Shown piece after piece: positions 2,979-51,060 of a DNA stretch of 64,000 nt. How positions within the stretch are numbered: position 1 is the stretch's first letter; every line of letters starts with the position of its first letter. A program made the position numbers and the translations under genes. The notes under the pieces were generated by a model. It did not search any database and was not told the origin of the DNA. It saw only the letters and a program-made list of their open reading frames with translations. This stretch comes from Eledone cirrhosa (Eukaryota). The stretch is from assembly GCA_964016885.1 (NCBI GenBank), contig OZ024766.1, positions 10,292,001-10,356,000 of the forward strand. Direction: 5' to 3'.

Positions 2979-3711
2979 GGAACGAGTAGGACCCCGACGG
3001 CTGAGCTCAAGCCGTTTCGACGGCTAATTCTGGACTAAATGAAAATTTTTATCCTCTTATATGAATAGCCGAGCTTCTCAGGGGGTAATTCCATATATGG
3101 TAAAAGTGATTGTCACAAGGATTGGTCAAAAGTTTGTTGTTGAGACACATAATTCTATCATGGCAATTTGTGGAAGGAAGGGGTAGCTGAACCTGCCAGT
3201 AGAAGAAAGAGGAAGAGGGGGTGGAGGAAACCCAGTCGTGCGTTGATAGTGTCAACTACAGCAGGGCAGGAGGTCAAGGAAGTATACTAGGGAGGGGGAG
3301 GAAGTCGAAACAATAAGTAAAACAATATGGGGTAAATATATAGATAAATACCGAGAATGTTAAAAGAAAAAACAATTAAATACTTATTGTTTCAACTTCC
3401 TCCCCCTCCCCCTCCCTAGTATACTTCCTTGACCTCTTGCCCTGCTGTAGTTGGCACTATCAACACACGACTGGGTTTCCTCCACCCCCTCTTCCTCTTT
3501 CTTCTACTGGCAGGTTCAGCTACCCCTTCCTTCCACAAATTGCCATGACAGAATTATGTGTCTCAACAACAAACTTTTGACCAATCCTTGTGACAATCAC
3601 TTCCACTTCCTCAGTGAAACAACAACCCAACCAGGAACTGGGCATATCAGAGTATTGACAAAATTATACACCTCAACAACATATGTACTTGTCTATACCA
3701 CACTAATTCGG

Positions 3712-3849: not shown

Positions 3850-4302
3850 GATAAATCTACCAAGAATTTACGGTAGTGTCCAATCCGTATGAAGAACTCA
3901 ATGTATTCCGGATATCATGGAAAGAAGAGATGTAATGAAAAATCACTTTCGGTGAAAGATAAACGGTATACAGAGTCAAGATAAAATATTAAACAAATAA
4001 TGAATAAACAATTCCTTATATTAAACAAAAAAAAAGTTCATTATTTAACGATCGTTTCTAGGATATATATGTGTTAGAATTGGCATGCATATTCAACAGA
4101 TCTATGTACAAAATTATACAAAATTATACAAATTATCAAGATTAAATATAATATATATATTTTGTATAATTTTGTATAATTTTGTACATAGATCTGTTGA
4201 ATATGCATGCCAATTCTAACACATATATATCCTAGAAACGATCGTTAAATAATGAACTTTTTTTTGTTTAATATAAGGAATTGTTTATTCATTATTTGTT
4301 TA

Positions 4303-4341
<39 letters not shown>

Positions 4342-8895: not shown

Positions 8896-11800
8896 GTAAG
8901 TTGTTGTTATTATTATTATTGGTAAAATACACCCAGTACACTCTGTAAAGTGGCAGTGTTGGTGTCATGATAAAATACACCCAGTACACTCTGTAAAGTG
9001 GCAGTGTTGGTGTCATGATAAAATACACCCAGTACACTCTGTAAAATGGTAGTGATGGTGTCATAATAAAATACACCCAGTACACTCTGTAAAGTAGTAG
9101 TGTTGGTGTCATGATAAAATACACCCAGTACACTCTGTAAAATGGTAGTGTTGGTGTCATGATAAAATACACCCAGTACACTCTGTAAAATGGTAGTGTT
9201 GGTGTCATGATAAAATACACCCAGTACACTCTGTAAAGTGGTAGTGTTGGTGTCATGATAAAATACACCCAGTACACTCTGTAAAATGTTAGTGTTGGTG
9301 TCATGATAAAATACACCCAGTACACTCTGTAAAGTGGTAGTGCTGGTGTCATGATAAAATACACCCTGTACACTCTGTAAAGTGGTAGTGTTGGTGTCAT
9401 GATAAAATACACCCAGTACACTCTGTAAAGTGGTAGTGTTGGTGTCATGATAAAATACACCCAGTACACTCTGTAAAGTGGTAGTGTTGGTGTCATGATA
9501 AAATACACCCAGTACACTCTGTAAAGTGGTAGTGTTGGTGTCATGATAAAATACACCCAGTACACTCTGTAAAGTGGTAGTGATGGTGTCATGATATAAT
9601 ACACCCAGTACACTCTGTAAAGTGGTAGTGTTGGTGTCATGATAAAATACACCCAGTACACTCTGTAAAGTGGTAGTGTTGGTGTCATGATAAAATACAC
9701 CCAGTACACTCTGTAAAGTGGTAGTGTTGGTGTCATGATAAAATACACCCAGTACACTCTGTAAAGTGGTAGTGTTGGTGTCATGATAAAATACACCCAG
9801 TACACTCTGTAAAGTGGTAGTGATGGTGTCATGATAAAATACACCCAGTACACTCTGTAAAGTGGTAGTGATGGTGTCATGATAAAATACACCCAGTACA
9901 CTCTGTAAAGTGGTAGTGTTGGTGTCATGATAAAATACACCCAGTACACTCTGTAAAGTGGTAGTGTTGGTGTCATGATAAAATACACCCAGTACACTCT
10001 GTAAAGTGGTAGTGATGGTGTCATGATAAAATACACCCAGTACACTCTGTAAAGTGGTAGTGCTGGTGTCATGATAAAATACACCCAGTACACTCTGTAA
10101 AATGTTAGTGTTGGTGTCATGATAAAATACACCCTGTACACTGTAAAGTGGTAGTGATGGTGTCATGATAAAATACACCCAGTACACTCTGTAAAATGGT
10201 AGTGTTGGTGTCATGATAAAATACACCCTGTACACTGTAAAGTGGTAGTGTTGGTGTCATGATAAAATACACCCAGTACACTCTGTAAAGTGGTAGTGTT
10301 GGTGTCATGATATAATACACCCAGTACACTCTGTAAAATGGTAGTGTTGGTGTCATGATAAAATACACCCAGTACACTCTGTAAAGTGGTAGTGTTGGTG
10401 TCATGATAAAATACACCCAGTACACTCTGTAAAGTGGTAGTGTTGGTGTCATGATAAAATACACCCAGTACACTCTGTAAAGTGGTAGTGTTGGTGTCAT
10501 GATAAAATACACCCAGTACACTCTGTAAAGTGGTAGTGATGGTGTCATGATAAAATACACCCAGTACACTCTGTAAAGTGGTAGTGATGGTGTCATGATA
10601 AAATACACCCAGTACACTCTGTAAAGTGGTAGTGTTGGTGTCATGATATAATACACCCAGTACACTCTGTAAAGTGGTAGTGTTGGTGTCATGATAAAAT
10701 ACACCCAGTACACTCTGTAAAGTGGTAGTGTTGGTGTCATGATAAAATACACCCAGTACACTCTGTAAAGTGGTAGTGATGGTGTCATGATAAAATACAC
10801 CCAGTACACTCTGTAAAGTGGTAGTGATGGTGTCATGATATAATACACCCAGTACACTCTGTAATGTGGTAGTGTTGGTGTCATGATAAAATACACCCAG
10901 TACACTCTGTAAAGTGGTAGTGTTGGTGTCATGATAAAATACACCCAGTACACTCTGTAAAGTGGTAGTGTTGGTGTCCTGATAAAATACATGGTTGTAA
11001 TGGTGGTGTTGGTACTGTGGTGGTGGTGTGATGTAGTGGGTGTGTGGGTAGTGGTGTGGTAGTGGTAGTGCAGTGATGGTTGTGGTGTTGGTGTGATATT
11101 ACTGTTGGTGGTGTGGTGTTGGTGTAGTAGTGGTGTTGTGTTGTGGTGGTGGTGTAATGTTGGAGATGTGGTGTTCATCATCATCATTTTACGTCTGCTT
11201 TTCCCTGCTTGCAAGGGTGGGACGGGTCTTATTCAGCACAGCATCTCTCCACTTGTCACGGTCCCTCGTCATCTCCACCGTGAGCTTCAATGATCTGAGG
11301 TCTGTTCTCACCACCTCCGCCCATGTTTTTCGTGGTCTACCTCTACCACGTCTTCCTTCAACTGGCATTTCCTGGCACTTCTTCACCCATCGGTCATCCT
11401 CCATGCGCATCACATGTCCATACCACCTCAGTCTCCTCTCCCGTACACTACATTCTATCCCTCTCAGACACAGTTTCTCTCTCAACACATCACATGTCCA
11501 TACCACCTCAGTCTCCTCTCTCGTACACTACATTCTATCCCTCTCAGACACAGTTTCTCTCTCAACACATCACATGTCCATACCACCTCAGTCTCCTCTC
11601 TCGTACACTACATTCTATCCCTCTCAGACACAGTTTCTCTCTCAACACATCACATGTCCATACCACCTCAGTCTCCTCTCCCGTACACTACATTCTATCC
11701 CTCTCAGACACAGTTTCTCTCTCAACACATTTATGCTGGGTCGTTCACGCACATTGACACTGCACATCCAACGGAGCATGCTTGCCTCATTTCTCTCCAG

Positions 11801-14800
11801 CCGTCGCATATCCTCTGCAGTTGCTGCCCATGTCTCACTACCATGCAGCATCGCGCTCCTCACACAAGCATCATACAACCGGCCTTTCGTACGCAGGGAG
11901 AAACCCTTCTTCGTCAACAGAGGAAGCAGCTCCCTAAACTTCTTCCAACCCGTCCTTATTCTAGATACTATGGCCTTGGAACACCCTCCTCCCATGCTAA
12001 TCTGATCTCCTAGGTACCGGAAGCTATCCACCACTTGTGTCTATCCAAAAATGTGTCTATCAGTGCGACTTCTACTGTCTAATTTTAACCCTGTTATTTT
12101 AAATATATACTTTATTTTTCCCTCTTCTCCCAGCTGATGGTGAATACTGCGTAAGTTGTGGCAGTGACAAAACCCTTAAATTGTGTGCAGTGATGGTGGT
12201 GGTTGTGGTGTTGGTGTGATATTACTGTTGGTGGTGTGGTGTTGGTGTAGTAGTGGTGTTGTGTTGTGTTGTGGTGGTGGTGTAATGTTGGAGATGTGGT
12301 GTTAACCCTGTTATTTTAAATATATACTTTATTTTTCCCTCTTCTCCCAGCTGATGGTGGTGTTGGTGGTGTTGGTGTAGTAGTGGTGTTGTGTTGTGGT
12401 GGTGGTGTAATGTTGGAGATGTGGTGTTGGTGTAGTAGTGGTGTTGGTGTAGTAGTGGTGTTGTGTTGTGGTGGTGGTGGTGGTGTAATGTTGGAGATGT
12501 GGTGTTGGTGTAGTAGTGGTGTTGTGATATTATTTTTCCCTCTTCTCCCAGCTGATGGTGGTGTTGGTGTGATATTACTGTTGGTGTAGTAGTGGTGTTG
12601 GTGTAGTAGTGGTGTTGTGTTGTGTTGTGGTGGTGGTGTAATGTTGGAGATGTGGTGTTAACCCTGTTATTTTAAATATATACTTTATTTTTCCCTCTTC
12701 TCCCAGCTGATGGCGGTGTTGGTGGTGTTGGTGTAGTAGTGGTGTTGTGTTGTGGTGGTGGTGTAATGTTGGAGATGTGGTGTTGGTGTAGTAGTGGTGT
12801 TGGTGTAGTAGTGGTGTTGTGGTGGTTGTGGTGGTGGTGGTGTAATGTTGGAGATGTGGTGTTAACCCTGTTATTTTAAATATATACTTTATTTTTCCCT
12901 CTTCTCCCAGCTGATGGTGGTGTTGGTGGTGTTGGTGTAGTAGTGGTGTTGTGGTGGTGGTAGTGGTGTAATGTTGGAGATGTGGTGTTGGTGTAGTAGT
13001 GGTGTTGTGGTGGTGGTAGTGGTGTAATGTTGGAGATGTGGTGTTGGTGTAGTAGTGGTGTTGTGGTGGTGGTAGTGGTGTAATGTTGGAGATGTGGTGT
13101 TGGTGTAGTAGTGGTGTTGTGGTGGTGGTAGTGGTGTAATGTTGGAGATGTGGTGTTGGTGTAGTAGTGGTGTTGTGTTGTGGTGGTGGTGGTGGTGTAA
13201 TGTTGGAGATGTGGTGTTAACCCTGTTATTTTAAATATATACTTTATTTTTCCCTCTTCTCCCAGCTGATGGTGAATACTGCGTAAGTTGTGGCAGTGAC
13301 AAGACCCTTAAATTGTGGAACCCCTACCGACAACTACAGCTGAAGACCTACTTAGGACATGGTTCTGAGGTTCTGGACGCTAATTCTGCCTGTGACAATG
13401 CTGCCCTTTGTTCTGGGGGTATGGACAAGTCAGTGATCTTGTGGGACGTGGCTACTGGTCAAGTAAAACGAAAATATAGAGGGCATGCAGGTAAGATTGT
13501 TGGTGGTGTGTGGTGTAGTGTAGTGTAGGTGGTGTGTGGTGTGGTGTAGTGTTGGTGGTGTGTGGTGTGGTGTAGTGTGGTGTGTGGTGTGGTGTGGTGT
13601 AGTGTTGGTGGTGTGTGGTGTAGTGTGGTGTAGTGTTGGTGGTGTGTGGTGTGGTGTAGTGTTGGTGGTGTGTGGTGTGGTGTAGTGTTGGTGGTGTGTG
13701 GTGTGGTGTAGTGTTGGTGGTGTGTGGTGTGGTGTAGTGTTGGTGGTGTGTGGTGTGGTGTAGTGTTTGTGGTGTGGTGTAGTGTTGGTGGTGTGGTGTG
13801 GTGTTGGTGGTGTGTGGTGTGGTGTGGTGTTGGTGGTGTGTGGTGTAGTGTAGTGTAGGTGGTGTGTGGTGTGGTGTGGTGTTTGTGGTGTAGTGTTGGT
13901 GGTGTGTGGTGTGGTGTGGTGTTGGTGGTGTGTGGTGTGGTGTAGTGTAGGTGGTGTGTGGTGTGGTGTAGTGTTGGTGGTGTGTGGTGTAGTGTTGATG
14001 GTGTGTGGTGTGTGGTGTGGTGTAGTGTTTGTGTGGTGTGGTGTAGTGTTGGTGGTGGAGTGTTGGTGGTGTGTGGTGTAGTGTTGGTGGTGTGTGGTGT
14101 GGTGTGGTGTAGTGTTGGTGGTGTGTGGTGTGGTGTAGTGTTGGTGGTGTGTGGTGTAGTGTTGATGGTGTGTGGTGTGTGGTGTGGTGTAGTGTTTGTG
14201 GTGTGTGGTGTGGTGTAGTGTTGGTGGTGTGTGGTGTGGTGTAGCATTGGTGGTGTGTGGTGTAGTGTTGGTGGTGTGTGGTGTAGTGTAGGTGGTGTAG
14301 TGTTGGTGGTGTGTGGTGTGGTGTAGTGTTGGTGGTGTGTGGTGTAGTGTTGGTGGTGTGTGGTGTGGTGTGGTGTTGGTGGTGTGTGGTGTAGTGTTGG
14401 TGGTGTGTGGTGTGGTGTTGGTGGTGTGTGGTGTGGTGTGGTGTAGTGTTGGTGGTGTGTGGTGTGGTGTAGTGTTGGTGGTGTGTGGTGTGGTGTAGTG
14501 TTGGTGGTGTGTGGTGTAGTGTTGGTGGTGTGTGGTGTAGTGTTGGTGGTGTGTGGTGTTGGTGGTGTGTGGTGTGGTGTAGTGTTGGTGGTGTGTGGTG
14601 TAGTGTTGGTGGTGTGTGGTGTAGTGTAGTGTTGGTGGTGTGTGGTGTGGTGTAGTGTTGGTGGTGTGTGGTGTGGTGTAGTGTTGGTGGTGTGTGGTGT
14701 GGTGTAGTGTTGGTGGTGTGTGGTGTGGTGTAGTGTTGGTGGTGTGTGGTGTGGTGTAGTGTTGGTGGTGTGTGGTGTAGTGTTGGTGGTGTGTGGTGTG

Positions 14801-17800
14801 GTGTAGTGTTGGTGGTGTGTGGTGTAGTGTTGGTGGTGTGTGGTGTAGTGTAGTGTTGGTGGTGTGTGGTGTGGTGTAGTGTTGGTGGTGTGTGGTGTGG
14901 TGTAGTGTTGGTGGTGTGTGGTGTAGTGTTGGTGGTGTGTGGTGTGGTGTAGTGTTGGTGGTGTGTGGTGTAGTGTTGGTGGTGTGTGGTGTAGTGTGGT
15001 GTAGTGTTGGTGGTGTGTGGTGTGGTGTGGTGTAGTGTTGGTGGTGTGTGGTGTAGTGTAGTGTTGGTGGTGTGTGGTGTGGTGTAGTGTTGGTGGTGTG
15101 TGGTGTAGTGTAGTGTTGGTGGTGTGTGGTGTGGTGTAGCGTTGGTGGTGTGTGGTGTGGTGTAGTGTTGGTGGTGTGGTGTAGTGTTGGTGGTGTGTGG
15201 TGTGGTGTGGTGTAGTGTTGGTGGTGTGTGGTGTGGTGTGGTGTAGTGTTGGTGGTGTGTGGTGTGGTGTGGTGTAGTGTTGGTGGTGTGTGGTGTGGTG
15301 TGGTGTAGTGTTGGTGGTGTGTGGTGTGGTGTGGTGTAGTGTTGGTGGTGTGTGGTGTAGTGTTGGTGGTGTGTGGTGTGGTGTAGTGTAGTGTTGGTGG
15401 TGTGTGGTGTGGTGTGGTGTAGTGTTGGTGGTGTGTGGTGTAGTGTGGTGTAGTTTTGGTGGTGTGTGGTGTAGTGTTGGTGGTGTGTGGTGTAGTGTAG
15501 TGTTGGTGGTGTGTGGTGTGGTGTAGTGTTGGTGGTGTGGTGTAGTGTTGGTGGTGTGTGGTGTAGTGTAGTGTTGGTGGTGTGGTGTAGTGTTGGTGGT
15601 GTGTGGTGTGGTGTAGTGTAGGTGGTGTGTGGTGTAGTGTTGGTGGTGTGTGGTGTGGTGTAGTGTTGGTGGTGTGTGGTGTGGTGTAGTGTTGGTGGTG
15701 TGTGGTGTGGTGTAGTGTTGGTGGTGTGTGGTGTGGTGTAGTGTTGGTGGTGTGTGGTGTGGTGTAGTGTTTGTGGTGTGGTGTAGTGTTGGTGGTGTGG
15801 TGTGGTGTTGGTGGTGTGTGGTGTGGTGTGGTGTTGGTGGTGTGTGGTGTAGTGTAGTGTAGGTGGTGTGTGGTGTGGTGTGGTGTTTGTGGTGTAGTGT
15901 TGGTGGTGTGTGGTGTGGTGTGGTGTTGGTGGTGTGTGGTGTGGTGTAGTGTAGGTGGTGTGTGGTGTGGTGTAGTGTTGGTGGTGTGTGGTGTAGTGTT
16001 GATGGTGTGTGGTGTGTGGTGTGGTGTAGTGTTTGTGTGGTGTGGTGTAGTGTTGGTGGTGGAGTGTTGGTGGTGTGTGGTGTAGTGTTGGTGGTGTGTG
16101 GTGTGGTGTGGTGTAGTGTTGGTGGTGTGTGGTGTGGTGTAGTGTTGGTGGTGTGTGGTGTAGTGTTGATGGTGTGTGGTGTGTGGTGTGGTGTAGTGTT
16201 TGTGTGGTGTGGTGTAGTGTTGGTGGTGTGTGGTGTGGTGTAGCATTGGTGGTGTGTGGTGTAGTGTTGGTGGTGTGTGGTGTAGTGTAGGTGGTGTGTG
16301 GTGTGGTGTAGTGTTGGTGGTGTGTGGTGTGGTGTAGTGTTGGTGGTGTGTGGTGTAGTGTTGGTGGTGTGTGGTGTTGGTGGTGTGTGGTGTGGTGTAG
16401 TGTTGGTGGTGTGTGGTGTGGTGTGGTGTGGTGGTGTGTAGTGTTGGTGTGGTGTAGTGTAGGTGGTGTGTGGTGTGGTGTAGTGTAGGTGGTGTGTGGT
16501 GTAGTGTAGGTGGTGTGTGGTGTAGTGTTGGTGGTGTATGGTGTGGTGTAGTGTTGGTGGTGTGTGGTGTAGTGTTGGTGGTGTGGTGTAGTGTTTGTGT
16601 GGTGTGGTGTAGTGTTGGTGGTGTGTGGTGTAGTGTAGTGTAGGTGGTGTGTGGTGTGGTGTAGTGTAGGTGGTGTGTGGTGTGTGGTGTGGTGTAGTGT
16701 TTGTGGTGTGGTGTGTGGTGTAGTTTTGGTGGTGTGTGGTGTAGTGTTGGTGGTGTGGTGTAGTGGTGTAGTGTTGGTGGTGTGTGGTGTGGTGTAGTGT
16801 TGGTGGTGTGTGGTGTGTAGTGTTTGTGGTGTGTGGTGTAGTGTTGGTGTGGTGTGGTGTTGGTGGTGTGTGGTGTGGTGTAGTGTTGGTGGTGTGTGGT
16901 GTAGTGTTGGTGGTGTGTGGTGTGGTGTAGTGTTGGTGGTGTGTGGTGTGGTGTAGTGTTGGTGGTGTGTGGTGTGTGTTGTGGTGTAGTGTTTGTGGTG
17001 TGTGGTGTGGTGTAGTGTTGGTGGTGTGTGGTGTAGTGTAGTGTTGGTGGTGTGTGGTGTGGTGTAGTGTTGGTGGTGTGTGGTGTGGTGTAGTGTTGGT
17101 GGTGTGTGGTGTGGTGTAGTGTTGGTGGTGTGTGGTGTGGTGTAGTGTTGGTGGTGTGTGGTGTGTAGTGTTTGTGGTGTGTGGTGTAGTGTTGGTGTGG
17201 TGTGGTGTGGTGTTGGTGGTGTGTGGTGTGGTGTAGTGTTGGTGGTGTGTGGTGTGGTGTGTGGTGTGGTGTAGTGTTGGTGGTGTGTGGTGTGGTGTAG
17301 TGTTGGTGGTGTGTGGTGTGGTGTAGTGTTGGTGGTGTGTGGTGTAGTGTTGGTGTGGTGTGGTGTGGTGTTGGTGGTGTGTGGTGTGGTGTAGTGTAGG
17401 TGGTGTGTGGTGTGGTGTAGTGTAGGTGGTGTGTGGTGTAGTGTAGGTGGTGTGTGGTGTAGTGTTTGTGGTGTGTGGTGTAGTGTTGGTGGTGTGTCGT
17501 GTGGTGTAGTGTTGGTGGTGTGTGGTGTGGTGTAGTGTAGGTGGTGTGTGGTGTGGTGTAGTGTAGGTGGTGTGTGGTGTAGTGTTTGTGGTGTAGTGTA
17601 GGTGGTGTGTGGTGTGGTGTAGTGTTTGTGGTGTAGTGTTGGTGGTGTGTGGTGTGGTGTTGGTGGTGTGTGGTGTGGTGTGGTGTAGTGTTGGTGGTGT
17701 GTGGTGTAGTGTTGGTGGTGTGGTGTAGTGTTGGTGGTGTGTGGTGTGGTGTAGTGTTGGTGGTGTGTGGTGTGGTGTGGTGTTGGTGGTGTGTGGTGTA

Positions 17801-18180
17801 GTGTTGGTGGTGTGTGGTGTAGTGTTGGTGGTGTAGTGGTGGTGGTGTGTGGTGTAGTGTAGTGGTGTGGTGTAGTGTTGGTGGTGTGTGGTGTAGTGTT
17901 GGTGGTGTAGTGGTGGTGGGGTGGTGTTGGTGGTGCGTGGTGTAGTGTAGTGGTGTGGTGTGTGGTGTACTGTTGGTGGTGTGTGGTGTAGTGTTGGTGG
18001 TGGGTGTAGTGTTGGTGGTGTGTGGTGTAGTGTTGGTGGTGTGTGGTGTAGTGTTGGTGGTGTGGTGTGTGTGGTGTAGTGTTGGTATTTTTGCTCAGAA
18101 CACTCCCTGAAACATAAGTATTACATGTGTAAAGTTTGAAAACAGTCGGTTGGGTGCTTCTCGAGCTTTAGGGATACAAA

Positions 18181-18591: not shown

Positions 18592-21255
18592 ACTACAAAT
18601 TTATATGTACTATTTCACACTGTAAAGTGGTCATGTAGGTGTCACAACAAAAAACACCCAGTCCACACTGTAAAGTGGTCATGTAGGTGTCACGACAAAA
18701 AGCACCCAGTCCACACTGTAAAGTGGTCATGTAGGTGTCACAACAAAAAAACACCCAGTCCACACTGTATAGTGGTAGTGTCGGTGTCACGACAAAAAGC
18801 ACCCAGTCCACACTGTAGAGTGGTCATGTAGGTGTCACAACAAAAAAACACCCAGTCCACACTGTATAGTGGTAGTGTCGGTGTCACGACAAAAAGCACC
18901 CAGTCCACACTGTAGAGTGGTCATGTAGGTGTCACGACAAAAAGCACCCAGTCCACACTGTAGAGTGGTCATGTAGGTGTCACGATAAAAAGTACCCAGT
19001 CCTCACTGTAAATGAGGTTGGCGTTAGGTGGGACATCCAGCTGTAGAAACCATGCCAAAGTATGTGTTGCATGTGGTCCTAGATGTGTGTATTATCTGAT
19101 TATGAGTTGTATGTGGTCTCTGGATTGAGAGATCACAGCTCTGATACTATAGACATGTGGTTAGAATATCTCAGGAAAGAATCTCTGAATTGAAAGATCA
19201 CAGCTCTGATACTACAGACATGTGGTTAGAATGTCTCAGGAAAGAATCTCTGAATTGAGAGATCACAGCTCTGATACTATGGACATGTGGTTAGAATGTC
19301 TCAGGAAAGAATCTCTGAACTGAGAGACCATAGCTCTGATACTATAGACATGTGGTTAGAATGTCTCAGGAAAGAATCTCTGGATTGAGAGATCACAGCT
19401 CTGATACTATGGACATGTGGTTAGAATGTCTCAGGAAAGAATCTCTGAATTGAGAGATCACAGCTCTGATACTATGGACATGTGGTTAGAATGTCTCAGG
19501 AAAGAATCTCTGAATTGAGAGATCACAGCTCTGATACTATGGACATGTGGTTAGAATGTCTCAGGAAAGAATCTCTGAACTGAGAGACCATAGCTCTGAT
19601 ACTATAGACATGTGGTTAGAATGTCTCAGGAAAGAATCTCTGAATTGAGAGATCACAGCTCTGATACTATGGACATGTGGTTAGAATGTCTCAGGAAAGA
19701 ATCTCTGAACTGAGAGACCATAGCTCTGATACTATAGACATGTGGTTAGAATGTCTCAGGAAAGAATCTCTGAACTGAGAGACCATAGCTCTGATACTAT
19801 AGACATGTGGTTAGAATGTCTCAGGAAAGAATCTCTGAATTGAGAGATCACAGCTCTGATACTATGGACATGTGGTTAGAATGTCTCAGGAAAGAATCTC
19901 TGAACTGAGAGACCATAGCTCTGATACTATAGACATGTGGTTAGAATGTCTCAGGAAAGAATCTCTGAACTGAGAGACCATAGCTCTGATACTATAGACA
20001 TGTGGTTAGAATGTCTCAGGAAAGAATCTCTGAATTGAGAGATCACAGCTCTGATACTATGGACATGTGGTTAGAATGTCTCAGGAAAGAATCTCTGAAC
20101 TGAGAGACCATAGCTCTGATACTATAGACATGTGGTTAGAATGTCTCAGGAAAGAATCTCTGAATTGAGAGATCACAGCTCTGATACTATGGACATGTGG
20201 TTAGAATGTCTCAGGAAAGAATCTCTGAACTGAGAGACCATAGCTCTGATACTATGGACATGTGGTTAGAATGTCTCAGGAAAGAATCTCTGAACTGAGA
20301 GACCATAGCTCTGATACTATAGACATGTGGTTAGAATGTCTCAGGAAAGAATCTCTGAATTGAGAGATCACAGCTCTGATACTATGGACATGTGGTTAGA
20401 ATGTCTCAGGAAAGAATCTCTGAACTGAGAGACCATAGCTCTGATACTATGGACATGTGGTTAGAATGTCTCAGGAAAGAATCTCTGAATTGAGAGATCA
20501 CAGCTCTGATACTATGGACATGTGGTTAGAATGTCTCAGGAAAGAATCTCTGAATTGAGAGACCACGTCTGGTGGGTTTTCTACGGCTGGATGCCCTTCC
20601 AAACACCAACCATGTTTACAGTGTGTACTGGGAGGTTTTTACCGTGTTACCTACACGGCCACATTACAGCGTGGACTGTGTGTTTTTTTGTCGTGACACC
20701 TACACGACCTCATTTAATTTGGACTGGATGTTATGGTACCAACATAACTTTACAGAGGAAGGGGTGGTGTTGGTGGGAGTGTGGGGGGGGGGGGGGTAGA
20801 GTATGTATATATATGTATATATATATATATAATATATATATATATATATAGGAGGTGAGTTTTATTGTAGTACAATAAAGCAATGCAGATATCGGATAAG
20901 AAGCACTCTACAGTTTGTAGGACTGGAGTATACATAATATATAAGATCAAAAGATGGTTAAAAGAGTTCCATGTATTTTATTATGCGCATTTCAAAAACA
21001 AACATCATCATGCAATAATATTTGTGTTTTCATCAGATAAAACAGGAGAACATGATATGAAGGCTAAAAAACACTTGTGGATAGTGCAGTTTTAAATCAA
21101 CATATGTAAAACTGCACTATCCACAAGTGTTTTTTAGCCTTCATATCATGTTCTCCTGTTTTATCTGATGAAAACACAAATATCATCGCATGATGATGTT
21201 TGTTTTTGAAATGCGCATAATAAAATACATGGAACTCCTTTAACCATCTTTTGAT

Positions 21256-21325
<70 letters not shown>

Positions 21326-22239
21326 CGTGCTCTCTCTTCTTCAGAAACTAAACGAAGCCAAAGACAGTGTCACTTCGATCCAGGTATCGGAACATGAAAT
21401 ATTATCTGGGTCAGCTGACTGTTATATCCGCAGGTATGACCTGAGAATCGGACGCCTCACTTGTGATTATGTTGGAAGTGAGTATATATACATATGTGTG
21501 TGTGTTTGTATGTGTTTGTATCATCATCATCATCATCATCATCGTTTAACGTCCATATTCCACGCTCGCATGGGTTTGGACGGGAGTTTTCCCACTTGAG
21601 GCAAGATTGGTTGTCCTGCTCGTATAGGACTGTCTGGCGGGTTTTCTACAGCTGGATGCCCTTCCTAACACCAACCACGTTTACAGTGTGGGGCTGGGAG
21701 GTATTTACCGTGTTGCCTACACGGCCACATTACAGCGTGGACTGTCTGGCGGGTTTTCTACAGCTGGATGCCCTTCCTAACACCAACCACATTTACAGTG
21801 TGGGGCTGGGAGGTTTTTACCGTGTTGCCTACACGGCCACATTACAGCGTGGACTGTCTGGCGGGTTTTCTACAGCTGGATGCCCTTCCTAACACCAACC
21901 ACATTTACAGTGTGGGGCTGGGAGGTTTTTACCGTGTTGCCTACACGGCCACATTACAGCGTGGACTATCTGGCGGGTTTTCTACAGCTGGATACCCTTC
22001 CTAACACCAAACACATTTACAGTGTGGGGCTGGGAGGTTTTTAACCGTGTTGCCTACACGGCCACATTACAGCGTGGACTGTGTGTTTTTTTTGTCGTGA
22101 CACCTACACGATCTCATTTGTTTCGGCCTGGATGTTGTGGGACCAACATAACTTTACATTGAAAGGGGCGGTGTGGATGGGATATATATGTGTGTGTGTG
22201 TGTGTGTGTGTCTCTGACTCTATATATACTGTATACAGT

Positions 22240-22275
<36 letters not shown>

Positions 22276-22687
22276 CAGAGTACCCGACCTCCCATGGGTA
22301 CAAGCTGAAGCATATAAACAATATGCCCCCACACGCTCCCACTGCAAAGTGGTCGAGGAGGTGCCACGGCAAAAAAGCACCCAGCACTCACTCTAAAGTG
22401 GACGGGTAGGCGCCACGGAAAAAAAAGCACCCAGCACTCACTGTAAATGAGGTTGGTGTTAGGAGGGGCATCCAGCTGTAGAAATCAAGCCAGAATTTTA
22501 TCTGATGAGGACGTACTGTTGAACCTGATTCAAGTACCTCTGAAATATGTATAATAAAATTTAATTGATCACAGGAATATCTATTTTGTTAATATTTGAA
22601 TTTATATTAATAACTCTGGAAAATATTTTCTTGTAGAGTGCTTCCAATCTACTGTAAAACTCATTCTTTGTTTAACTTGTTTAACTC

Positions 22688-30900: not shown

Positions 30901-33900
30901 CTCTCACCACCTCTACCCAGGTCTTCCTAGGTCTACCTCTACTGAGGTGAGCTCTCACCACCTCTGCCCAGGTCTTCCTTGGTCTACCTCTACTGAGGTG
31001 AGCTCTCACCACCTCTACCCAGGTCTTCCTTGGTCTACCTCTACTGAGGTGAGCTCTCACCACCTCTGCCCAGGTCTTCCTTGGTCTACCTCTACTGAGG
31101 TGAGCTCTCACCACCTCTGCCCAGGTCTTCCTTGGTCTACCTCTACTGAGGTCAGCTCTCACCACCTCTGCCCAGGTCTTCCTTGGTCTACCTCTACTGA
31201 GGTCAGCTCTCACCACCTCTGCCCAGGTCTTCCTTGGTCTACCTCTACTGAGGTGAGCTCTCACCATCTCTGCCCAGGTCTTCCTCGGTCTACCTCTACT
31301 GAGGTCAGCTCTCACCACCTCTACCCAGGTCTTCCTTGGTCTACCTCTACTGAGGTGAGCTCTCACCACCTCTGCCCAGGTCTTCCTCAGTCTACCTCTA
31401 CTGAGGTCAGCTCTCACCACCTCTGCCCAGGCCTTCCTAGGTCTACCTCTACTGAGGTCAGCTCTCACCACCTCTACCCAGGTCTTCCTTGGTCTACCTC
31501 TACTGAGGTGAGCTCTCACCACCTCTGCCCAGGTCTTCCTTGGTCTACCTCTACTGAGGTCAGCTCTCACCTCCTCTGCCCAGGTCTTCCATTATAATTA
31601 AGTACACCATTATAATTCCTTGACACATTGTCTAGCAATCCTGAACATACATATATACATATACACATATGTACATATATATATACCCCACTCTCAAGAG
31701 CGTGAAACTAATAAACCTTTGTTTGTACTGCCTCTCTGTTTTTGTTCCTGTTCCAGTTTTCACTATATATATACATATATATATATATATAATTAAATGT
31801 GAAGTTATGTTGGTACCACAACATCCAGTCCGAAATAAATGAGGTCGTGTAGGTGTCACGACAAAAAACACAGTCCACGCTGTAATGTGGCCGTGTAGGC
31901 AACACGGTAAAAACCTCCCAGTCCACACTGTAAACGTGGTTGGTGTTGGGAAGGGCACCCAGCCGTAGAAAACCCGCCAGACGTGTAGGTGTGTTGACAA
32001 TAAAACACACAGTCCACGCTGTAATGTGGCCGTGTAGGTAACACGGTAAAAACCTCCCAGTCCACACTGTAAACGTGGTTGGTGTTGGGAAGGGCATCCA
32101 GCCGTAGAAAAGCCGCCAGACAGTCCTGAGCAAGACAACCAATCTTGCTTCAAGTGGGACAATTCTCGTCCAGACCCATGCTAGCGTGGAAAATTGACGT
32201 TAAATGATGATCATGATATATATATATATATTCATCATTTTATTTTACGTCCGCTTTACCCTGCTTGCAAGGGTGAGACGGGAACTGATTTTGGCTTGAT
32301 TTCTACAGCTGGATGCCCTTCCTAACGCCAACCTCATTTACAGTGAGTGCTGGGTGCTTTTTTGCCGTGGCACCTCCACGTCCACTTTGCAGTGGAATGA
32401 TAGGGACCCCAGTCCCTATCATCTCATTTCTACAGCTGAGTAAACTGGAGCAATGTGAAATAAAGTGTCTTGCTCAAGGAAACAACACATCACCTGGTCT
32501 GAGAATTGAACTCACAACCTTTCGATTGCAAGGCCAATGCTCTAGCCACTAAGCCATGTGCCTCCATACATATATATATATATATGTATGTATATATAGT
32601 CAAAACTGGAACGGAAACAAAAACAGAGAGGCAGTACAAACAAAGGTTTATTAGTTTCACGCTCTTGAGAGTGGGGTATATATATATGTACATATGTGTA
32701 TATTTATATACATATGTACATATGTGTATATGTATATATGTATGTTCAGGATTGCTAGACAGTGTGTCAAGGAATGATAATGGTGCACTTGCCCTCACTG
32801 ATACTGATAAGAAGATAGCCTGGAAGTGTCACTACGAGAGGCTACTAAATGAGGAGAATAAGTGGGAAAAAGATAGTCTACCCCAAATCGATCCAATAGA
32901 AGGACAAGCAGTGTAGGTTAAAGGTAGTATAATACTTAAGGCAATCAAAGATATGAAGACAGGCAAGGCAGCTGGGCCTTCCGAGATAGTTGCTGAAATG
33001 CTGAAAGCATCTGGAATGGAGGGACATACTATGGTCACCCGGATAGTAAACCAAGTCATACAGAACGGGGCCATACCAAAAGACTGGCATAGCAGCATCA
33101 TCATTAACTGCTTCAAGGGTAAAGGGGATGCTCTAGATAGGGGGAACTATAGAGGCATTAAATTGATTGACCAGGTCATGAAGGTCACAGAAAGAGTTAT
33201 AGCGCAACTAATCAGAGAGCGAATTGATCTAGATGAAATGCAGTTTGGGTTTGTGTCAGGTAAAAGTACCACAGATGCTCTTTTCCTTGTACGAGAACTA
33301 CAGGAGAAGTACCTAGCTAAAAGTAAACACCCCTACTTAGCTTTTGTAGACCTGGAGAAAGCCTTTGACAGAGTCCCTCGCTCCATTATCTGGTGGGCCC
33401 TTAGAAAACTAGGTGTAGATGAATGGCTTGTGAGAGCTATACAAGCTATGTATAAAGAAACAGTCAGTAAGGTTAGAATTAAAAATGAATTTTGTGAAGA
33501 ATTTAGTTTAAAAGTTGGTGTTCATCAAGGCTCTGTCCTTAGCCCCCTCCTATTTATTATTTCCCTTCAGGCTATAACAGAGGAGTTTAAGACTGGCTGC
33601 CCATGGGAACTCCTATATGCAGAAGATGTAACTCTCATAGCTGAATGGAACATGGAAGCATGGCCTAGAATCATGCCTGTATACGAACAGCAATGCTACA
33701 TGGCAGTGAGACATGGGCAATGCGTGCAGAGGACCTACGCAGACTGGAAAGGAACGAAGCATGCATGCTCCGTTGGATGTGTAATAGTAATATATGTGAA
33801 CGGCAAAGCATAAATGAACTAAGTGAGAAATTAGGAATAAGAGGGATCAGATGCTGTTTACTTGAGAGAAGACTACATTGGTATGGCCACGTGATGCGCA

Positions 33901-36900
33901 TGAAAGACGACAACTGCATAAAAAAGTGCAGGGCGATCAAAATTGAGGGTAGTTACGGAGTAGGTAGACCCAGAAAAACCTGGGAAGATCTGATAAATTC
34001 CGACCTTACACACTTACACCTCTCTAAGACAATGTCACTGGACCGAGATCTTTGGCGCTACACAGTAATACAGAAGACCCGCCTTGCCTATGTACAAAGC
34101 GAAACCTACAGTCAGTAGGCACCTCTTAACCAAATATACACCCCCATCCCACTACCCCTACCCTATCCTCCCACTACCACCAACACCAACCTCTCCCTAT
34201 AAAGTTGGTACCACAACATCCAGTCCAAATAAATGAGATAATGATATCGAGTTCGTGTAGGTGTCACGAGAAAAAAAAACACAGTCCACACTGTAATGTG
34301 GCCGTGTAGGTAACACGGTAAAAAAGGCTCCCAGTCCACACTGTAAACGTGGTTGGTGTTAGGAAGGGCATCCAGCCGTAGAAAACCTGCCAGATAGTCC
34401 TATATGAGCGAGACATGGTCACCCGACCAGCCTTGCCTCAAGTGGGACAACTCCCGTCTAACCCATGCTAGCGTGGAAGATGGACGTTAAACGATGATGA
34501 TCATCATCATCATCATCATCAACGTTTAACGTCCGTGTTCCACGCTTGCATGGGTTTGGACGGGGGTAGTCCCACTTGAGGCAAGAGTGATTGTCTTGCT
34601 CGCATAGGACTGTCTGGCAGGTTTTCTACAGTTGGATGCCCTTCCTAACACCAACCACATTTACAGTGTGGGTCTGGGAGGTTTTTACCGTGTTGCCTAC
34701 ACGGCCACATTACAGCGTGGACTGTGTGTTTTTTTGTCGTGACACCTACACGATCTCATTTGTTTCGGCCCGGATGGCGCGGCACCAACATAACTTTACA
34801 TAGGACGGGGTGGTGTGGATGGGGTGGGGGTGGTGGTGGTGGGACGGGGTGTATTTTGTTAGAGATGCCTACTGGCAAGGCGGGTCTTCTCTGTTACTGA
34901 GTACCGCCAAAGGTCTCGGTCCAGTGACATTGTCTTGGAGAGGTGTAAGTGTGTGAGGTCGGAGTTTATCAGCTCGTCCCAGGTTTTTCTAGGTCTGCCT
35001 ATTCCGTGGCTACCGTCTATCTTTATTGCCCTGCACTTTGTTATACAGCTATCGACTTTCATGCGCATCACGTGTCCATACCAACGTAGCCTTCTCTCGA
35101 GTAAACAACATCTGATCCCTCTTATCTCTAATTTTTTCCTTAGTTCGTTTATGCTTTGCCGTTCACGTATATTACTGTTACACATCCAGCGGAGCATGCA
35201 AGCTTCGTTCCTCTCTAGTCTGCGTATATCCTCTGCACACAATGCCCAGGTCTCACTGCCATGCAACATTGCTGTTCGTATGCAGGCATCGTACAACCTG
35301 CCTTTCATTTTTAGGGAGAACCCTTTAGCAGCTAATAGTGGTATAAGCTCTCTGAACTTTTTCCAACCAGTTCTGACTCTAGCTACAGTACTTTCAGAGC
35401 ACCCTCCCCCACTGCTGATTTTATCGCCCAGGTAACGGAAGCTGTCCACTATTTCTATAGAACCCTCTGCGCAATTGAAAGAGCTAGTATTGTGTGGGCA
35501 CTTGCTGCTACTTATTGCACCAGAACACCGGCCACATGTAAAATCTATGTTCTTAGTTAGCTTACCTGTGATCCCACTACATCTTTTATGCACCCATACT
35601 TTGCATTTAGGACACAAAATGGAGTTTCTACCTACGCCTTTCCTACACACCGAGCACGACCATTTCCCAGAAGGGACCGCCGCCTTGTTTTCTTTCCTAC
35701 AAACTAGAACTTTGGTCTTAGCCAGGTTAATTTTAAGTCCTTTTGACTCTAGGCCGTGCTTCCATGTTTGGAATTTCTTCTCTAGCTCGGCCATTGATTC
35801 CGCTATGAGTGTCAGGTCGTCTGCGTATAGGAGTTCCCATGGGCAGCCTGTCTTGAACTCCTCTGTTATAGCCTGAAGGGCAATAATAAATAGTAGGGGG
35901 CTGAGAACAGAGCCCTGATGGACGCCGACTTTTACGCTAAACTCTTCACTATATTCGTTGTTAATTCTAACCTTGCTGACTGTTTCTTTATACATGGCTT
36001 GTATAGCCCTCACAAGCCATTCGTCAACGCCTAGTTTTCTAAGAGCCCACCAGATAATGGAGCGGGGGACTCTGTCGAAGGCTTTCTCCAAGTCGACAAA
36101 AGCTAAGTAGAGGGGTTTACCTTTAGCTAGGTACTTCTCCTGTAGTTGTCGTACTATGAAAAGAGCGTCTGTGGTACTTTTGCCTGACACAAACCCGAAC
36201 TGCATTTCATCTAGGTCAATTCTCTCTCTGATTAGTTGCGCTATTACTTTTTCTGTGACCTTCATGACCTGGTCGATTAATTTAATGCCTCTATAGTTAC
36301 TCCTATCTAGGGCGTCTCCTTTACCCTTATAACAGTTAACGATGATGCTGCTATGCCAGTCCTTCGGAACAACCCCATTCTGTACGACTTGGTTAACTAT
36401 GCGGGTGACCATGGTGTGTCCCACCGTGCCAGATGCCTTCAGCATCTCAGCAACTATTTCCGAAGGCCCAGCCGCCTTACCTGTCTTCATATCCTTGATT
36501 GCCTTACTTATTATACTCCCCTCGACTAACACTGCTGGTCCCTCTATTGGGTCGACATGGGGGAGACTGTCTTTCTCCCATTTATTCTCCTCATTTAGTA
36601 GCCTTTCATAGTGACACTTCCAAGCTGCCTTCTTATCAGTGTCGGTGATGGCAAGTGATTATATATATATATATATGTACATATATATATATATATCGGG
36701 TCATTCTTGAGTGCTACTGGTCACATGTTACCCAGTACAACCTGTCGTATGGTTGGGTTGTCGGCGACTAAACCGGCAACCCCACCAAGTTTACTTGGTG
36801 AGGAGGGTGATTTTGGACAGCCTGCAGGACAAAAACAAAACCTGACAAAGGGCGCAAGAACTCATAAGAGTCAACGGCCATCCAAAAGTGTGTAAATATG

Positions 36901-38384: not shown

Positions 38385-39410
38385 ACCATTAGGTCCTTCG
38401 TCGAAATGGAAAGTTTTCCATCTAACTCTGCGTATAAAGTCGTTTGTTCGCTGTATCATCCCGACGGTATAATCCATTCTCAAATGTATAGGAATGTTCT
38501 TTAGGGACATACCTATGTAATGCTTTTCCATAGTACCGTATGTTTAGGTGGTTGTTCGACCGATAAGGAGCCTGTAGTTAGGGAAGCAGAAAATTGCTTT
38601 TTGTGATCCAGTACGTGGTTAAGAAAGCCAGTTTCATGGATGGTTTCAACGTACAGTTAGGGGTAACTCCACAAGTTTGTAAGAATTCTGTTCAATCTTG
38701 GAGTATAAAGTATAAAAGAGAAAACACAGGTAAGCATTAAGAGAAGGATTTTATCCAGGTATTTACGACCGTTTCATTGGTAAGTGCAACCTTATATTGT
38801 TTTTCCAAATTCACATAGATACAGCAAAATCCTTAACACTAAATCTATTAGACTATCTTACTCCACGGCACCAAATATGGAGGCACACATTAAGATGCTT
38901 AACGCTAAAAAGATACATAACAACACCAAAACACAAATTTACAACAATAACAATACAATCACCATTGAACACAACAGAATATCTAATACACAACCACCCG
39001 CTAATAGGCAAACAAAATGTAACACTTGTACAGGCATCGCAGCCCACCAATAATGCCAAAGTTGCCCATGACAAGAACTGTAACTGCCTCCTACCTGAAA
39101 CCTGTCCATTACAAAATGAAAGTATGCAGTCTAACCTGGTTTACCAATGCACAGTGGAATCAGACAACCAGAAATGGTATTACATCGGAGCGACTGGGAA
39201 TACATTTAAAGCCCGTTGGTATACACACCGTTACGCAATGAAACATTCCCAGCACCGTTATGTAACTACCCTTGCAAACAAGACCTGGCAACTGAGGGAA
39301 AGTAACCATCAATACACCCTGAAGTGGAAAAAATTATCGAACGCGCCCCCATATCGGAGTGTTATGAGAAGCTGTCAATTATGCGACCTTGAGCTGTTCC
39401 ACATCCTGAG
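38385..39410 (+). mobile_element. Penelope-like element: GIY-YIG C-terminal ORF part (+, about 38802-39410) joined to an inverted pLTR/ORF N-terminus (-, about 38800-38385)
   Basis: + strand FPNSHRYSKILN...LSYSTAPN and CNC...CPL...VYQCTV...YIGATGNTFKARWYTH...CQLC; - strand MEKHYIGMSLKNIPI...FIRRVRWKTFHF and a hammerhead 3' half GAAACGGTCGTA. Confidence 0.85.
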
Positions 39411-39629
39411 TGCTGTAATGGAATCTGTGCTGCTGTACGGGTCTGAGACTTGGACACTGACCAAGAAACTCACTCAGATGGTGGATGGGTGCTACACGAG
39501 AATACTGAGGATCCAGCTATAGAAATCAAGCCAGAATCAGTTCCCGTCCCACCCTTGCAAGCAGGGAAAAGCGGACGTAAAATGAAATGAAAAAAAAATG
39601 AAATATGTGAAACCCTTGCAAGCAGGGAA

Positions 39630-44615: not shown

Positions 44616-46565
44616 TATATATATAATATAAAATATTTAAAAAATAATGAATAAAACAATGAAACAGCTCCCTACATTAAACAAAAAAAGCCCACCATTT
44701 AACGATCGCCCCCAGGACATATATGTGTCAGAACCGGCATGCACACTCAAAAGATCCATGTACAAAATTATACAAACCACCAAAGAGAATACAATTGGAC
44801 ACTACCGTAAACTTTTGGTAGATTTATCTACATCATCATCATCATCAGGTTTAGCGTCCGTGTTCCACGCTTGCATGGGTTTGGACGGGGGTTTTCCCAC
44901 TTGAGGCAAGAGTGGTTGTCTTGCTCGCATAGGACTGTCTGGCGGGTTTTCTACAGTTGGATGCCCTTCCTAACACCAACCACATTTACAGTGTGGGTCT
45001 GGGAGGTTTTTACCGTGTTGCCTACACGGCCACATTACAGCGTGGACTGTCTGGCGGGTTTTCTACAGCTGGATGCCCTTCCTAACACCAACCACATTTA
45101 CAGTGTGGGGCTGGGAGGTTTTTACCGTGTTGCCTACATGGCCACATTACAGCGTGGACTGTCTGGCGGGTTTTCTACAGCTGGATGCCCTTCCTAACAC
45201 CAACCACATTTACAGTGTGGGGCTGGGAGGTTTTTACCGTGTTGCCTACACGGCCACATTACAGCGTGGACTGTCTGGCGGGTTTTCTACAGCTGGATGC
45301 CCTTCCTAACACCAACCACATTTACAGTGTGGGGCTGGGAGGTTTTTACCGTGTTGCCTACACGGCCACATTTACAGCGTGGACTGTGTGTTTTTTTTGT
45401 CGTGACACCTACACGATCTCATTTGTTTCGGCCTGGATATAATATATATATATATACACAGAACATACATATCGGATATTGTTTATCGTTAATTCGTAAG
45501 CTGTTTTTCCGATTCTCGATTATTCTACTAAAATATATACATACAGAAACATAAAAATATATATATACATAAAATACACACATAAAACATACATACATAC
45601 ATATATATAAAATACACATACACATATATATAAAATACACATATATACACATAAAATACATATATATATACACATCATCATCATCATCATCATCATCAAC
45701 GTTTAACGTCCGTGTTCCACGCTTGCATGGGTTTGGACGGGGGTTTTCCCACTTGAGGCAAGAGTGATTGTCTTGCTCGCATAGGACTGTCTGATACACA
45801 TATATATAAAATACACATACACATATATATAAAATATATACATACATATATATAAAATACACATATATACACATATAAAATACATATATATATACACATG
45901 ATACACATATATATAAAATATATACTATATATACATATATATAATATACACATATATGCACATATAAAATATATATATATATATATACACATGATACATA
46001 TATACATATATATATAAAATATATACATACATATATATAAAATACACATATATACACATAAAATATATACTATATATACATATATATAAAATACACATAT
46101 ATACACATATAAAATACATATATATATACACATGATACACATATATATAAAATATATACATATATATAATATACACATATATGCACATATAAAATATATA
46201 TATATATATATATACACATGATACATATATACATATATATATAAAATATATACATACATATATATAAAATACACATATATACACATAAAATATATACTAT
46301 ATATACATATATATAAAATACACATATATACACATATAAAATATATATATATATATATATATATACACATGATACATATATACATATATATATAAAATCA
46401 GGTTCAATAAAACGTGGTTTAGATGACTCCTAACCAGTAGAGGATCTGGTGGACCATCCACCATAGGGACCACAAACCATGGGTGGTTGTTGTCCATTGG
46501 TCATTGGTACGGGGTGTAGGGGACCTACAGGGGGGGGGGGGCTTGTAGGAGGCCGTAACCGGAGT

Positions 46566-47070
46566 TTATCCATATAGCTTAAGGAAAGTTCCCGTCCTTA
46601 GGTGTCTGCAGGCACCGAATAAGTCGGCCCTTCTGTTTAATAGCTTGGTTTCGCCATGAAGAATCTCGAGTGTCTCACTAAGACAGAGGTTGCAAATACC
46701 AGACCCTCCTCTGTCTGGGGGGAACCTTTCTAACCACGGACCAGACCAGAGAGTGCGGGGACTTTTCAAGTTTGAGCTTCCAGATCAATTCAGAAAGGGC
46801 CGTACATTTCCTCTTATCTATTCTGTTAAAGGAATGGCGATGGTTATACCACCTATCTTTGAAGCTCGTCGCTGTGGATCCTATGTAATGGTGTTCCGAG
46901 TTAGGGGTTGTGACCTTGCACCTGTAGACCACGTTTTTCGTCATGCATTCATTACTAAGAGGGCATAGTGATGGGTCTCTGCAATTACATGACTTCTTAA
47001 GCCCCACCACATGTACCGCGTGGTTACCATCCCTCGGGGTTGGCTGGGTAGCCTCCGCAATCAGCACAGG
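46566..47070 (-). mobile_element. Penelope-like GIY-YIG endonuclease fragment (frameshifted)
   Basis: CNCRDPSLCPLSNEC...VVYRCKV...YIGSTATSFKDRWYNH, then CNLCLSETLEIL...LLNRR...CRH. Confidence 0.88.
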
Positions 47071-49384: not shown

Positions 49385-49524
49385 ATTATGGTGCGCTTTC
49401 ATCAGATAAAATACAGATTTGTTTTATAAATAAATATTGACATACCCGGAAAAAAGACAACCTCAACATTTGAAATTCGCTGGATAGCGAATATATATAT
49501 ATATGTATATATATCTATATATCT

Positions 49525-49890: not shown

Positions 49891-50536
49891 TATGAATATA
49901 AAATGAAAGTGCTTTTTTAAAAAAGGGAATTCATTAGGTATTGACATATGTTTCTGTAACAGACGGAATACCTATGTACCGCTGCTTGTGTAATCATATA
50001 ATGTTAGCAAGTATTCGATAGCAAATGTATAATCAGTTGTCACTTCTTCAGAGATTTTGGATAAATTGGATAAAATCAAAAAAATTGAAGTATTTATATT
50101 AGTAATAGAGGAAGAAAAAGAGGGGATAGTATATGACAGATGGTAATTCAATTTACTGCTAAACAAGTATATAATGGGTTTCTAATGAGAATACCATGAG
50201 TAAATGGTTCATTTTATCTAAATAAGAATTTTTGGGAGTGCCAATTTAATCTCTACTTGACCAATTGGACAGTGGACAGGGCTGGTCATTTGGTGTAGTA
50301 GTATTAATTATAAAGTGTCAATTGGGGAAGGGGGAGATTTCGATTGCTACTGAATAACATCAATGCTAGTAGCCAGCTGGTATATGCATTAGGGAATTGA
50401 ATTAGGAAATCAGAAATCTCATTTTATCTATAGCAGTTTATATTAAATGGTAAATAATAGAAGAGTTGATAGAATTAAGACTAATAAAGAATGTTAATAT
50501 CTATTTTGACAATCAAACGGAGATAGAGACAGGCGT

Positions 50537-50937: not shown

Positions 50938-50989
50938 TGTGTCTTGAACGTGTTCAAGACTGTTTTTTAACCTTCATATCATGTCTTCC

Positions 50990-51060
50990 TATTTTATCTG
51001 ATGAAAACACAAATATTATTGCATGATGATATTTGTTTTTGAAATGCGCATAATAAAATA
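50990..51060 (+). ncRNA. Type I hammerhead ribozyme next to a GIY-YIG fragment
   Basis: tattttat CTGATGA aaacacaaatattatt-gcat-gatgatatttgttttt GAAA tgcgca TA ataaaata. Confidence 0.85.

Follow-up and report, generated by a model that had tools for sequence, protein, structure and literature searches.

In the sections cited here, insertions of Penelope-like elements (PLEs) are described as carrying an inverted 5′-truncated copy beside the pseudo-LTR (pLTR), a tail on one side only and a bias towards (TA)n (PMC8557442), and head-to-head inverted pLTRs have been ascribed to self-priming (PMC3846280); the origin of PLE head-to-head repeats is called unresolved in the former account (PMC8557442). 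The cited part of a biochemical study describes a purified PLE protein that cuts and extends both target strands, two reverse transcription (RT) starts defining the tail (PMC11167929). Minimal hammerheads were found, according to the main text of their description, in opposite-strand pairs 100–700 bp apart, and in vitro the monomer did not cleave and the dimer cleaved weakly (PMC4209133). As for RNA editing, the passages cited report Penelope as heavily edited in lizard and octopus hyper-editing as very high (PMC5625713, PMC9068888), the editing motif being stated in the former as G depletion only.

In the 64-kb stretch of DNA analysed here (the window), a hairpin upstream of WDR83 coding exon 4 very probably consists of two 5′-truncated, head-to-head copies of a high-copy hammerhead repeat set between (TA)n runs, likely a PLE pLTR or a non-autonomous derivative, which would have arisen in one insertion event and likely has no selected role in WDR83. 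The host gene is the WDR83 of an octopod, its exon 2 being 92% identical to that of Octopus sinensis WDR83, and the match to the latter places seven coding exons on the plus strand. The exon next to the hairpin is the fourth of these seven, as the first-pass annotation had numbered it:

21345 to 21477, plus strand: WDR83 coding exon 4 (tblastn with O. sinensis WDR83, 87% identity; boundaries from sequence)

The acceptor AG of this exon is located at 21343–21344. The hairpin ends at 21264, 79 nt upstream of the AG and 80 nt upstream of the coding exon, and the interval up to the AG at 21343 is occupied by a (TA)n run together with a pyrimidine tract of 20 nt; neither this tract nor the acceptor is covered by the duplex. 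WDR83 introns are filled by large satellites at 13498–18086, 8923–10991 and 19117–20566, made up of 4.6 kb of a GT-rich 26-mer, 43 units of 48 bp and 22 units of 65 bp. Intron 1 contains a partial copy of the start of exon 2 (12126–12183, plus strand; 17 codons) including the acceptor, which sits among GT-rich repeats and is a possible decoy acceptor. In intron 6, two inverted reverse-transcriptase fragments about 80% alike (33673–35289), which we take to be RTE-like, form a second and longer dsRNA candidate in the WDR83 pre-mRNA.

The arms of the hairpin (20937–21097 and 21104–21264) are 161 nt long each and 98% complementary. Trimmed to the last perfect pair they comprise 20937–21094 and 21107–21264 (158 nt) around a loop of 12 nt, which bears out the earlier description of a near-perfect inverted repeat with a 12-nt spacer. 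Correct as it was in length, this ‘spacer’ is, however, sequence of the repeat family, and the left copy extends 84 nt past its arm to 20853. The parts of the hairpin and its flanks are as follows:

20802 to 20850, no strand: left (TA)n run, found by TRF, likely half of the target microsatellite
20853 to 21110, minus strand: longer 5′-truncated copy of the hammerhead repeat (pLTR-like), composed of tail, left arm and loop, with its 3′ end at (TA)n
20853 to 20936, minus strand: 84-nt 3′ extension (the tail), common to the left and third copies and absent from the right arm
21095 to 21110, plus strand: 12-nt loop and 4-nt TAAA microhomology (21107–21110), the head-to-head junction as read from sequence
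21107 to 21264, plus strand: shorter inverted copy (right arm), its 3′ end merging into (TA)n
21258 to 21322, no strand: right (TA)32 run, found by TRF

Bases 21107–21110 are common to both copies and form a 4-nt overlap at the junction, both outer ends of the hairpin run into (TA)n, and the copies differ in extent, 84 nt of the left one being absent from the right. Folding of the hairpin yielded a z-score of −37.7, with none of 100 shuffles equally stable. The arms mismatch at three positions (20963/21238, 21014/21187 and 21017/21184), where A in the left arm always faces C in the right arm; this bias was rejected as evidence, as there are only three cases, of which two are adjacent in stem II and possibly represent one event.

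The repeat to which the arms belong is dispersed and high-copy, and a further copy is present about 30 kb from the hairpin:

50961 to 51181, plus strand: third copy, consisting of one arm and the tail and ending in (TA)n; identity to the left copy 97% over 221 nt

Contigs aligning over 20851–21124 numbered 4403 in run X2, 483 in X1 and 62 in X5 (another organism code), and no reads aligned from the raw-read run X21 (another organism code, with about 1/100 of the reads sampled); since summed contig depth is no copy number, the family is graded only as high copy. Six listed RNA runs, containing 4–5% of the sequence words, did not enter this alignment. The contigs of X1, X2 and X5 track the family sequence across the 12-nt loop as far as 21110, beyond which they diverge into other sequence, and this identifies the loop as family sequence. 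Within X2, 60 contigs meet (TA)n near 20929, matching the end of the right arm, a few do so at 20854, matching the end of the left copy, and 45 contigs of variant sequence leave at 20949, so that two preferred 3′ ends at (TA)n correspond to the ends of the two arms. Past the junction, the X2 depth was 2852 at 21111–21120 and 735 at 21121–21124, the single contigs listed having 14–39. Fold-back chimeras occur in long-read data, and no aligned contig spans the whole stretch 20851–21124, as would be expected if the hairpin were an artefact of assembly or of long-read fold-back. Such an artefact is nevertheless scarcely credible, as the arms differ at three positions and X2 contigs reach 21111–21124, beyond the junction, with five of them fitting two places of the stretch. 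X2 possibly stems from the same individual as the assembly.

Each arm contains CUGAUGA, a stem II, GAAA and UA, with a stem I of 8 bp, and the descriptor scan placed one motif on each strand:

20974 to 21044, minus strand: minimal hammerhead of type I in antisense orientation to WDR83 (core from 21036; predicted cut between 20982 and 20981; descriptor scan)
21157 to 21227, plus strand: minimal hammerhead of type I in sense orientation to WDR83 (core from 21165; predicted cut after 21219; descriptor scan)

The type I core (CUGANGA, GAAA and UH, with stems I and II) is thus found in both arms, and stem II is long in both hammerheads. The earlier statement that each arm holds a full hammerhead is correct for the core and stems I and II, but stem III is a mere 8-nt palindrome and there was no Rfam match at gathering score. 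No hammerhead family was among 34 weak Rfam matches; weak microRNA matches were rejected, as any long hairpin gives them. The descriptor scan detected nine motifs in the 64-kb window against a mean of 0.05 per shuffle (60 shuffles), all nine being followed by a (TA)n run 38–155 nt downstream of the cut site. Searching metagenome contigs with an exact 25-nt hammerhead pattern gave no matches.

In the sense hammerhead (21157–21227) stem III is an 8-nt palindrome and the base of stem II is without a G–C pair. Even in the isolated right arm, stem III had a predicted pairing probability of about 0.0006, and the stable monomer stem III of a canonical hammerhead is accordingly absent. The palindrome, with its 2-nt loop, gave a self-duplex of −10.5 kcal/mol, and the cofolded dimer pairs through it, as expected of the palindromic stem III and loop 3 that allow minimal PLE hammerheads to dimerize. 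The G10.1–C11.1 pair at the base of stem II that also marks these hammerheads is not found, both arms having A–U; over 10 aligned motifs, the first stem II pair was AU in six, GU in three and another in one. This alignment, in which the structure was taken from one row, the rows are related and row 55510 is misaligned and was retained, had 90% of its cells paired and 7 of 13 pairs changed on both sides, above all slid controls. In columns 20 and 55 of alignment A2, the base preceding GAAA is U in 10 of 10 hammerheads of the window, with A or G as its partner; this U takes the place of the usual G–C pair and is possibly a lineage trait. As modelled, the ribozyme is not a canonical monomeric hammerhead but a minimal one that depends on dimers.

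Eleven hammerhead insertions were counted in the window, eight by the strict scan and three (2829 and the truncated 41508 and 49405) by looser searches. An inverted piece is present at six of them (2829, 3717, the WDR83 intron locus, 50998, 52159 and 55510) and absent from the other five (22502, 41508, 41764, 49405 and 54075). Three of these loci bear on the discussion below:

2688 to 2858, no strand: fold-back of another hammerhead family, with CUGAUGA on both strands, between microsatellites and upstream of the WDR83 coding span
22493 to 22562, plus strand: internal control in WDR83 intron 4, a hammerhead of a related family in sense orientation that lacks an antisense partner
55331 to 55673, no strand: palindrome with 128-nt arms (98%) and a hammerhead in its loop, outside the WDR83 coding span

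For the hammerhead at 22502 no antisense match of more than 20 nt was found anywhere in the 64-kb window, and its stem I is predicted to be only about 10% formed. Three motifs lie inside the gene, a number too small to reveal an orientation bias. Inverted pieces are attached to hammerhead repeats also at 3104–3602, 52006–52066 and 55331–55673. Two palindromes between TA runs (3981–4311, 96%; 2386–2469, 95%) had no detectable hammerhead. At 49172–49490 an N-terminal PLE coding piece (plus strand) is joined to a hammerhead (minus strand) cut off within stem II, this join being tail-to-tail, unlike the other joins in the window. A sequence at 50020–50050 (minus strand), close to where the copy with the GIY-YIG fragment has its 3′ end, is a possible decayed hammerhead that fails the strict scan.

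Most of the properties tested in the WDR83 hairpin are those of EN+ PLE insertions. An inverted 5′-truncated copy adjoins the 5′ end of the longer one, a (TA)n microsatellite flanks the hairpin on both sides, and a tail is present on one side together with two RT start sites, the tail being 84 nt long against the published 30–40 bp. Within the (TA)n flanks a target-site duplication is not readable, and no empty site was seen. A near-perfect palindrome between TA runs would also be produced by a miniature inverted-repeat DNA transposon (MITE or foldback element) flanked by TA, an origin rendered exceedingly improbable by the asymmetric ends with an 84-nt tail on one side, by the lack of symmetric terminal inverted repeats at both ends of all copies, by a third copy that is a single arm, by a loop made of family sequence that continues at other loci and by hammerhead stems that covary across families. 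It is likewise very improbable that one insertion was later duplicated in inverted orientation by a template switch during replication or repair, with no retrotransposition involved; the junction microhomology and the near-identical arms would fit this too, but the right arm ends where 60 X2 contigs meet (TA)n as well, and inversions are concentrated on hammerhead insertions (6 of 11).

If the hairpin arose by a single PLE-type insertion, the (TA)n tract would have been nicked by a Penelope-type GIY-YIG endonuclease, and reverse transcription would have begun at the far 3′ start site (20853), copying about 258 nt. At the TAAA/TTTA microhomology, the end of the cDNA may then have taken its own strand as template, and self-copying would have proceeded back to the AT-rich site near 20937, followed by joining to the other side of the tract. 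Alternatively, the same outcome would follow if both target strands primed synthesis, with two start sites in use. The 4-bp snap-back is not stable alone (DNA folding, 0 kcal/mol). Of 10 common family alleles the arms share nine (P about 0.12, assuming independent sites), and allele sharing was for this reason rejected as proof of snap-back; being so weak, it does not separate snap-back from two-ended priming, and we regard the two as equal alternatives.

Part of the evidence linking the family to PLEs comes from coding fragments in its neighbourhood, one of them adjacent to the third copy:

50695 to 50940, minus strand: Penelope-like element fragment, 5′-truncated, encoding a GIY-YIG endonuclease (match to the Pfam GIY-YIG model at E 0.0002, slightly short of gathering)

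This fragment and the third copy meet head-to-head at a snap-back junction of 12 nt, yet the fragment's own 3′ UTR showed no similarity to the hammerhead repeat family. The family may be a non-autonomous derivative. A profile built from three GIY-YIG fragments gave 4930 protein matches, and among the best 150 of these, four proteins of 696–759 aa match near their C-terminus, their N-termini likewise matching the window. A word-indexed protein search with the 82-aa GIY-YIG fragment left none of 17 candidates significant, Pfam found neither an RT nor a GIY-YIG match on six long relatives of the fragments, and six relatives that were looked up had no names attached. The motifs recognised by eye in P0190 are presumably those of an RT. 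The arms gave no meaningful match to the 150 best endonuclease relatives, and were rejected as coding sequence, as no frame matches these relatives. A CNC..CP cysteine linker motif precedes the GIY-YIG nuclease at 39058 and 46992, and the C-terminal GIY-YIG after a cysteine linker that is typical of Neptune/Nematis is hence found, in neighbouring coding fragments only. Because the 3′ UTR is unlike the family and Pfam gave no RT on the long relatives, a Penelope-like parent element is something that we infer, no RT or GIY-YIG frame in the 64-kb window tying to the repeat family.

Further PLE remains were observed in the window. At 46560–47055 (minus strand) is a GIY-YIG fragment that has the cysteine linker motif and derives from a more distant PLE. 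Two near-identical head-to-head joins of an N-terminal PLE piece and a pre-endonuclease piece (38397–39450 and 47784–48302; 99.6% over 238 nt) each adjoin the same 51-bp satellite, and are attributable either to local inverted duplication or to repeated insertion.

The first-pass annotation had proposed that the hairpin sequesters the sense ribozyme and thereby protects the WDR83 transcript. Sequestration is borne out in the predicted fold, where the hammerhead stems have pairing probabilities of about 0 versus 0.999 for arm–arm pairs. It could be argued from this that the antisense arm was retained to silence a harmful sense ribozyme in the WDR83 pre-mRNA, with editing of the duplex tuning exon 4 splicing, and an argument for such selection can be made from the thermodynamic certainty of the sequestration in that fold, the three A–C mismatches within the duplex, an A>G/T>C excess at the family level in run X1 and, in the passages cited, cephalopod editing aimed at intron and UTR repeats (PMC9068888). 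We consider it very unlikely. Stem III does not form in the monomer (about 0.0006), minimal hammerhead monomers are described in the cited sections as not cleaving (PMC4209133), and the one minimal hammerhead assayed there required the element's protein (PMC11167929); with a ribozyme that is minimal and dimer-dependent, there is little to protect against. Moreover, the sense hammerhead at 22502 is left unpaired in WDR83 intron 4, and fold-backs are the normal insertion product of the element, similar ones being found outside the WDR83 coding span (2688–2858 and 55331–55673). The proposed protection is therefore not supported, nor is the suggested effect near the acceptor, the hairpin stopping 79 nt short of the AG and the pyrimidine tract and acceptor being free of the duplex. 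Composed of two back-to-back ends of a very common repeat, the hairpin is likely an ordinary insertion scar and not a gene-protecting device, and a WDR83-specific regulatory role is unlikely. In the WDR83 pre-mRNA the 158-bp duplex would block the folding of an already weak hammerhead and, up to the removal of the intron by splicing, would serve ADAR as a passive substrate.

That the duplex is an ADAR substrate, as the same annotation had suggested, has support in a hint of A-to-I editing at the family level and not at the WDR83 locus itself. The search for editing listed 27 differences, of which 21 were at a similar level in X1 and X2 (ratio <10), and six were X1-specific and >50-fold higher in X1 (3–14% in X1, <0.1% in X2):

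X1-specific changes: positions 20974, 20979 and 20981 (T>C), 20983 and 21057 (A>G) and 21052 (A>T, one contig)

Five of the six are of the types produced by A-to-I editing of either strand, a proportion that is unremarkable when only transitions are considered (P 0.11). A-to-I editing prefers a 5′ U, and four of the five A-to-I-type sites have one, versus a baseline of 23% (P about 0.01), X1 being a run of unrecorded type whose sample differs from X2. Four of the X1 sites cluster within 10 nt with 19–20 contigs each, so that a diverged expressed copy is possible. No X1 contigs extend past the junction of the hairpin, and one other fold-back joint (21071–21105) was found in this run. Checking the arms for A-to-G mismatches thus revealed an A>G/T>C excess in the repeat family (X1) that is not assignable to WDR83, and the sequences hint at A-to-I editing of the family and not of the WDR83 locus specifically. 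This agrees with the editing aimed at repeats that the passages cited describe for cephalopods (PMC9068888, PMC5625713).

As a tentative proposal, to which we would give rather low odds, the double-hammerhead palindrome may be a recurrent or self-propagating unit, and PLE fold-backs may supply genome-wide, near-perfect intronic dsRNA that feeds octopod A-to-I hyper-editing, with the ribozyme inactivated by editing close to its cleavage site and sense copies in introns tolerated by selection chiefly as fold-backs. The idea of a recurrent unit arises because the X2 depth past the junction hints at tens of loci, depth being no copy number. Should fold-backs prove to be a main dsRNA source in the editing of cephalopods, a retroelement mechanism would be tied to the editing load of these animals. 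Independently of this, the WDR83 hairpin is a clean case of a known retroelement insertion pattern in octopods, and, with a junction that can be read and two 3′ ends, it can serve for testing how head-to-head repeats of PLEs are formed.

A search of the main texts of openly accessible papers found nothing on the WDR83 locus or on octopod Penelope hammerheads, nor, among the papers listed on octopus introns and editing, any mention of WDR83. No octopus motif was seen in the cited sections of PMC4209133, the supplement of which covers more families and may include cephalopods. In comparison with conserved amniote intronic hammerheads, the hairpin shares a sense hammerhead within an intron, but those are, in the sections cited, highly conserved and co-opted, whereas that of WDR83 has a minimal stem III and belongs to a repeat that is young and multicopy (PMC7761336). 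It resembles the inverted and palindromic repeats that are hyper-edited by ADAR in being a long, repeat-derived intronic duplex, although editing was seen in the cited parts of those studies (PMC5625713, PMC9068888) and the WDR83 duplex is known from sequence. As with the animal non-LTR retrozymes described in the cited part of bioRxiv 10.64898/2026.07.22.740005, the family consists of non-coding hammerhead repeats, pLTR-related and likely PLE-mobilised; retrozymes, however, are head-to-tail tandems, whereas copies of the WDR83 type are dispersed or head-to-head. Head-to-tail tandem units were absent from the 64-kb window, with no ‘go back’ joint within 274 nt; longer units may exist.

The closest ribozymes are the minimal hammerheads of metazoan PLEs (Cervera & De la Pena, 2014; PMC4209133), which, as given in the main text, agree with those of the WDR83 hairpin in being type I, with a long stem II, a short palindromic stem III and dispersed copies. 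They differ in that the WDR83 arms have A–U at the base of stem II in place of the conserved G10.1–C11.1, a longer stem I (8 bp) and cores 129 nt apart in a perfect hairpin. The insertion itself is a new family member, in octopods, of the known PLE pattern. Like the EN+ PLE pLTR insertions in the cited sections of Arkhipova et al. (2013; PMC3846280) and Craig et al. (2021; PMC8557442), it has a shorter inverted copy at the 5′ end of the longer one, an overlap at the junction, a tail on one side and a (TA)n target; unlike those insertions, it retains no ORF at the WDR83 locus, and its tail measures 84 nt as opposed to 30–40 bp.
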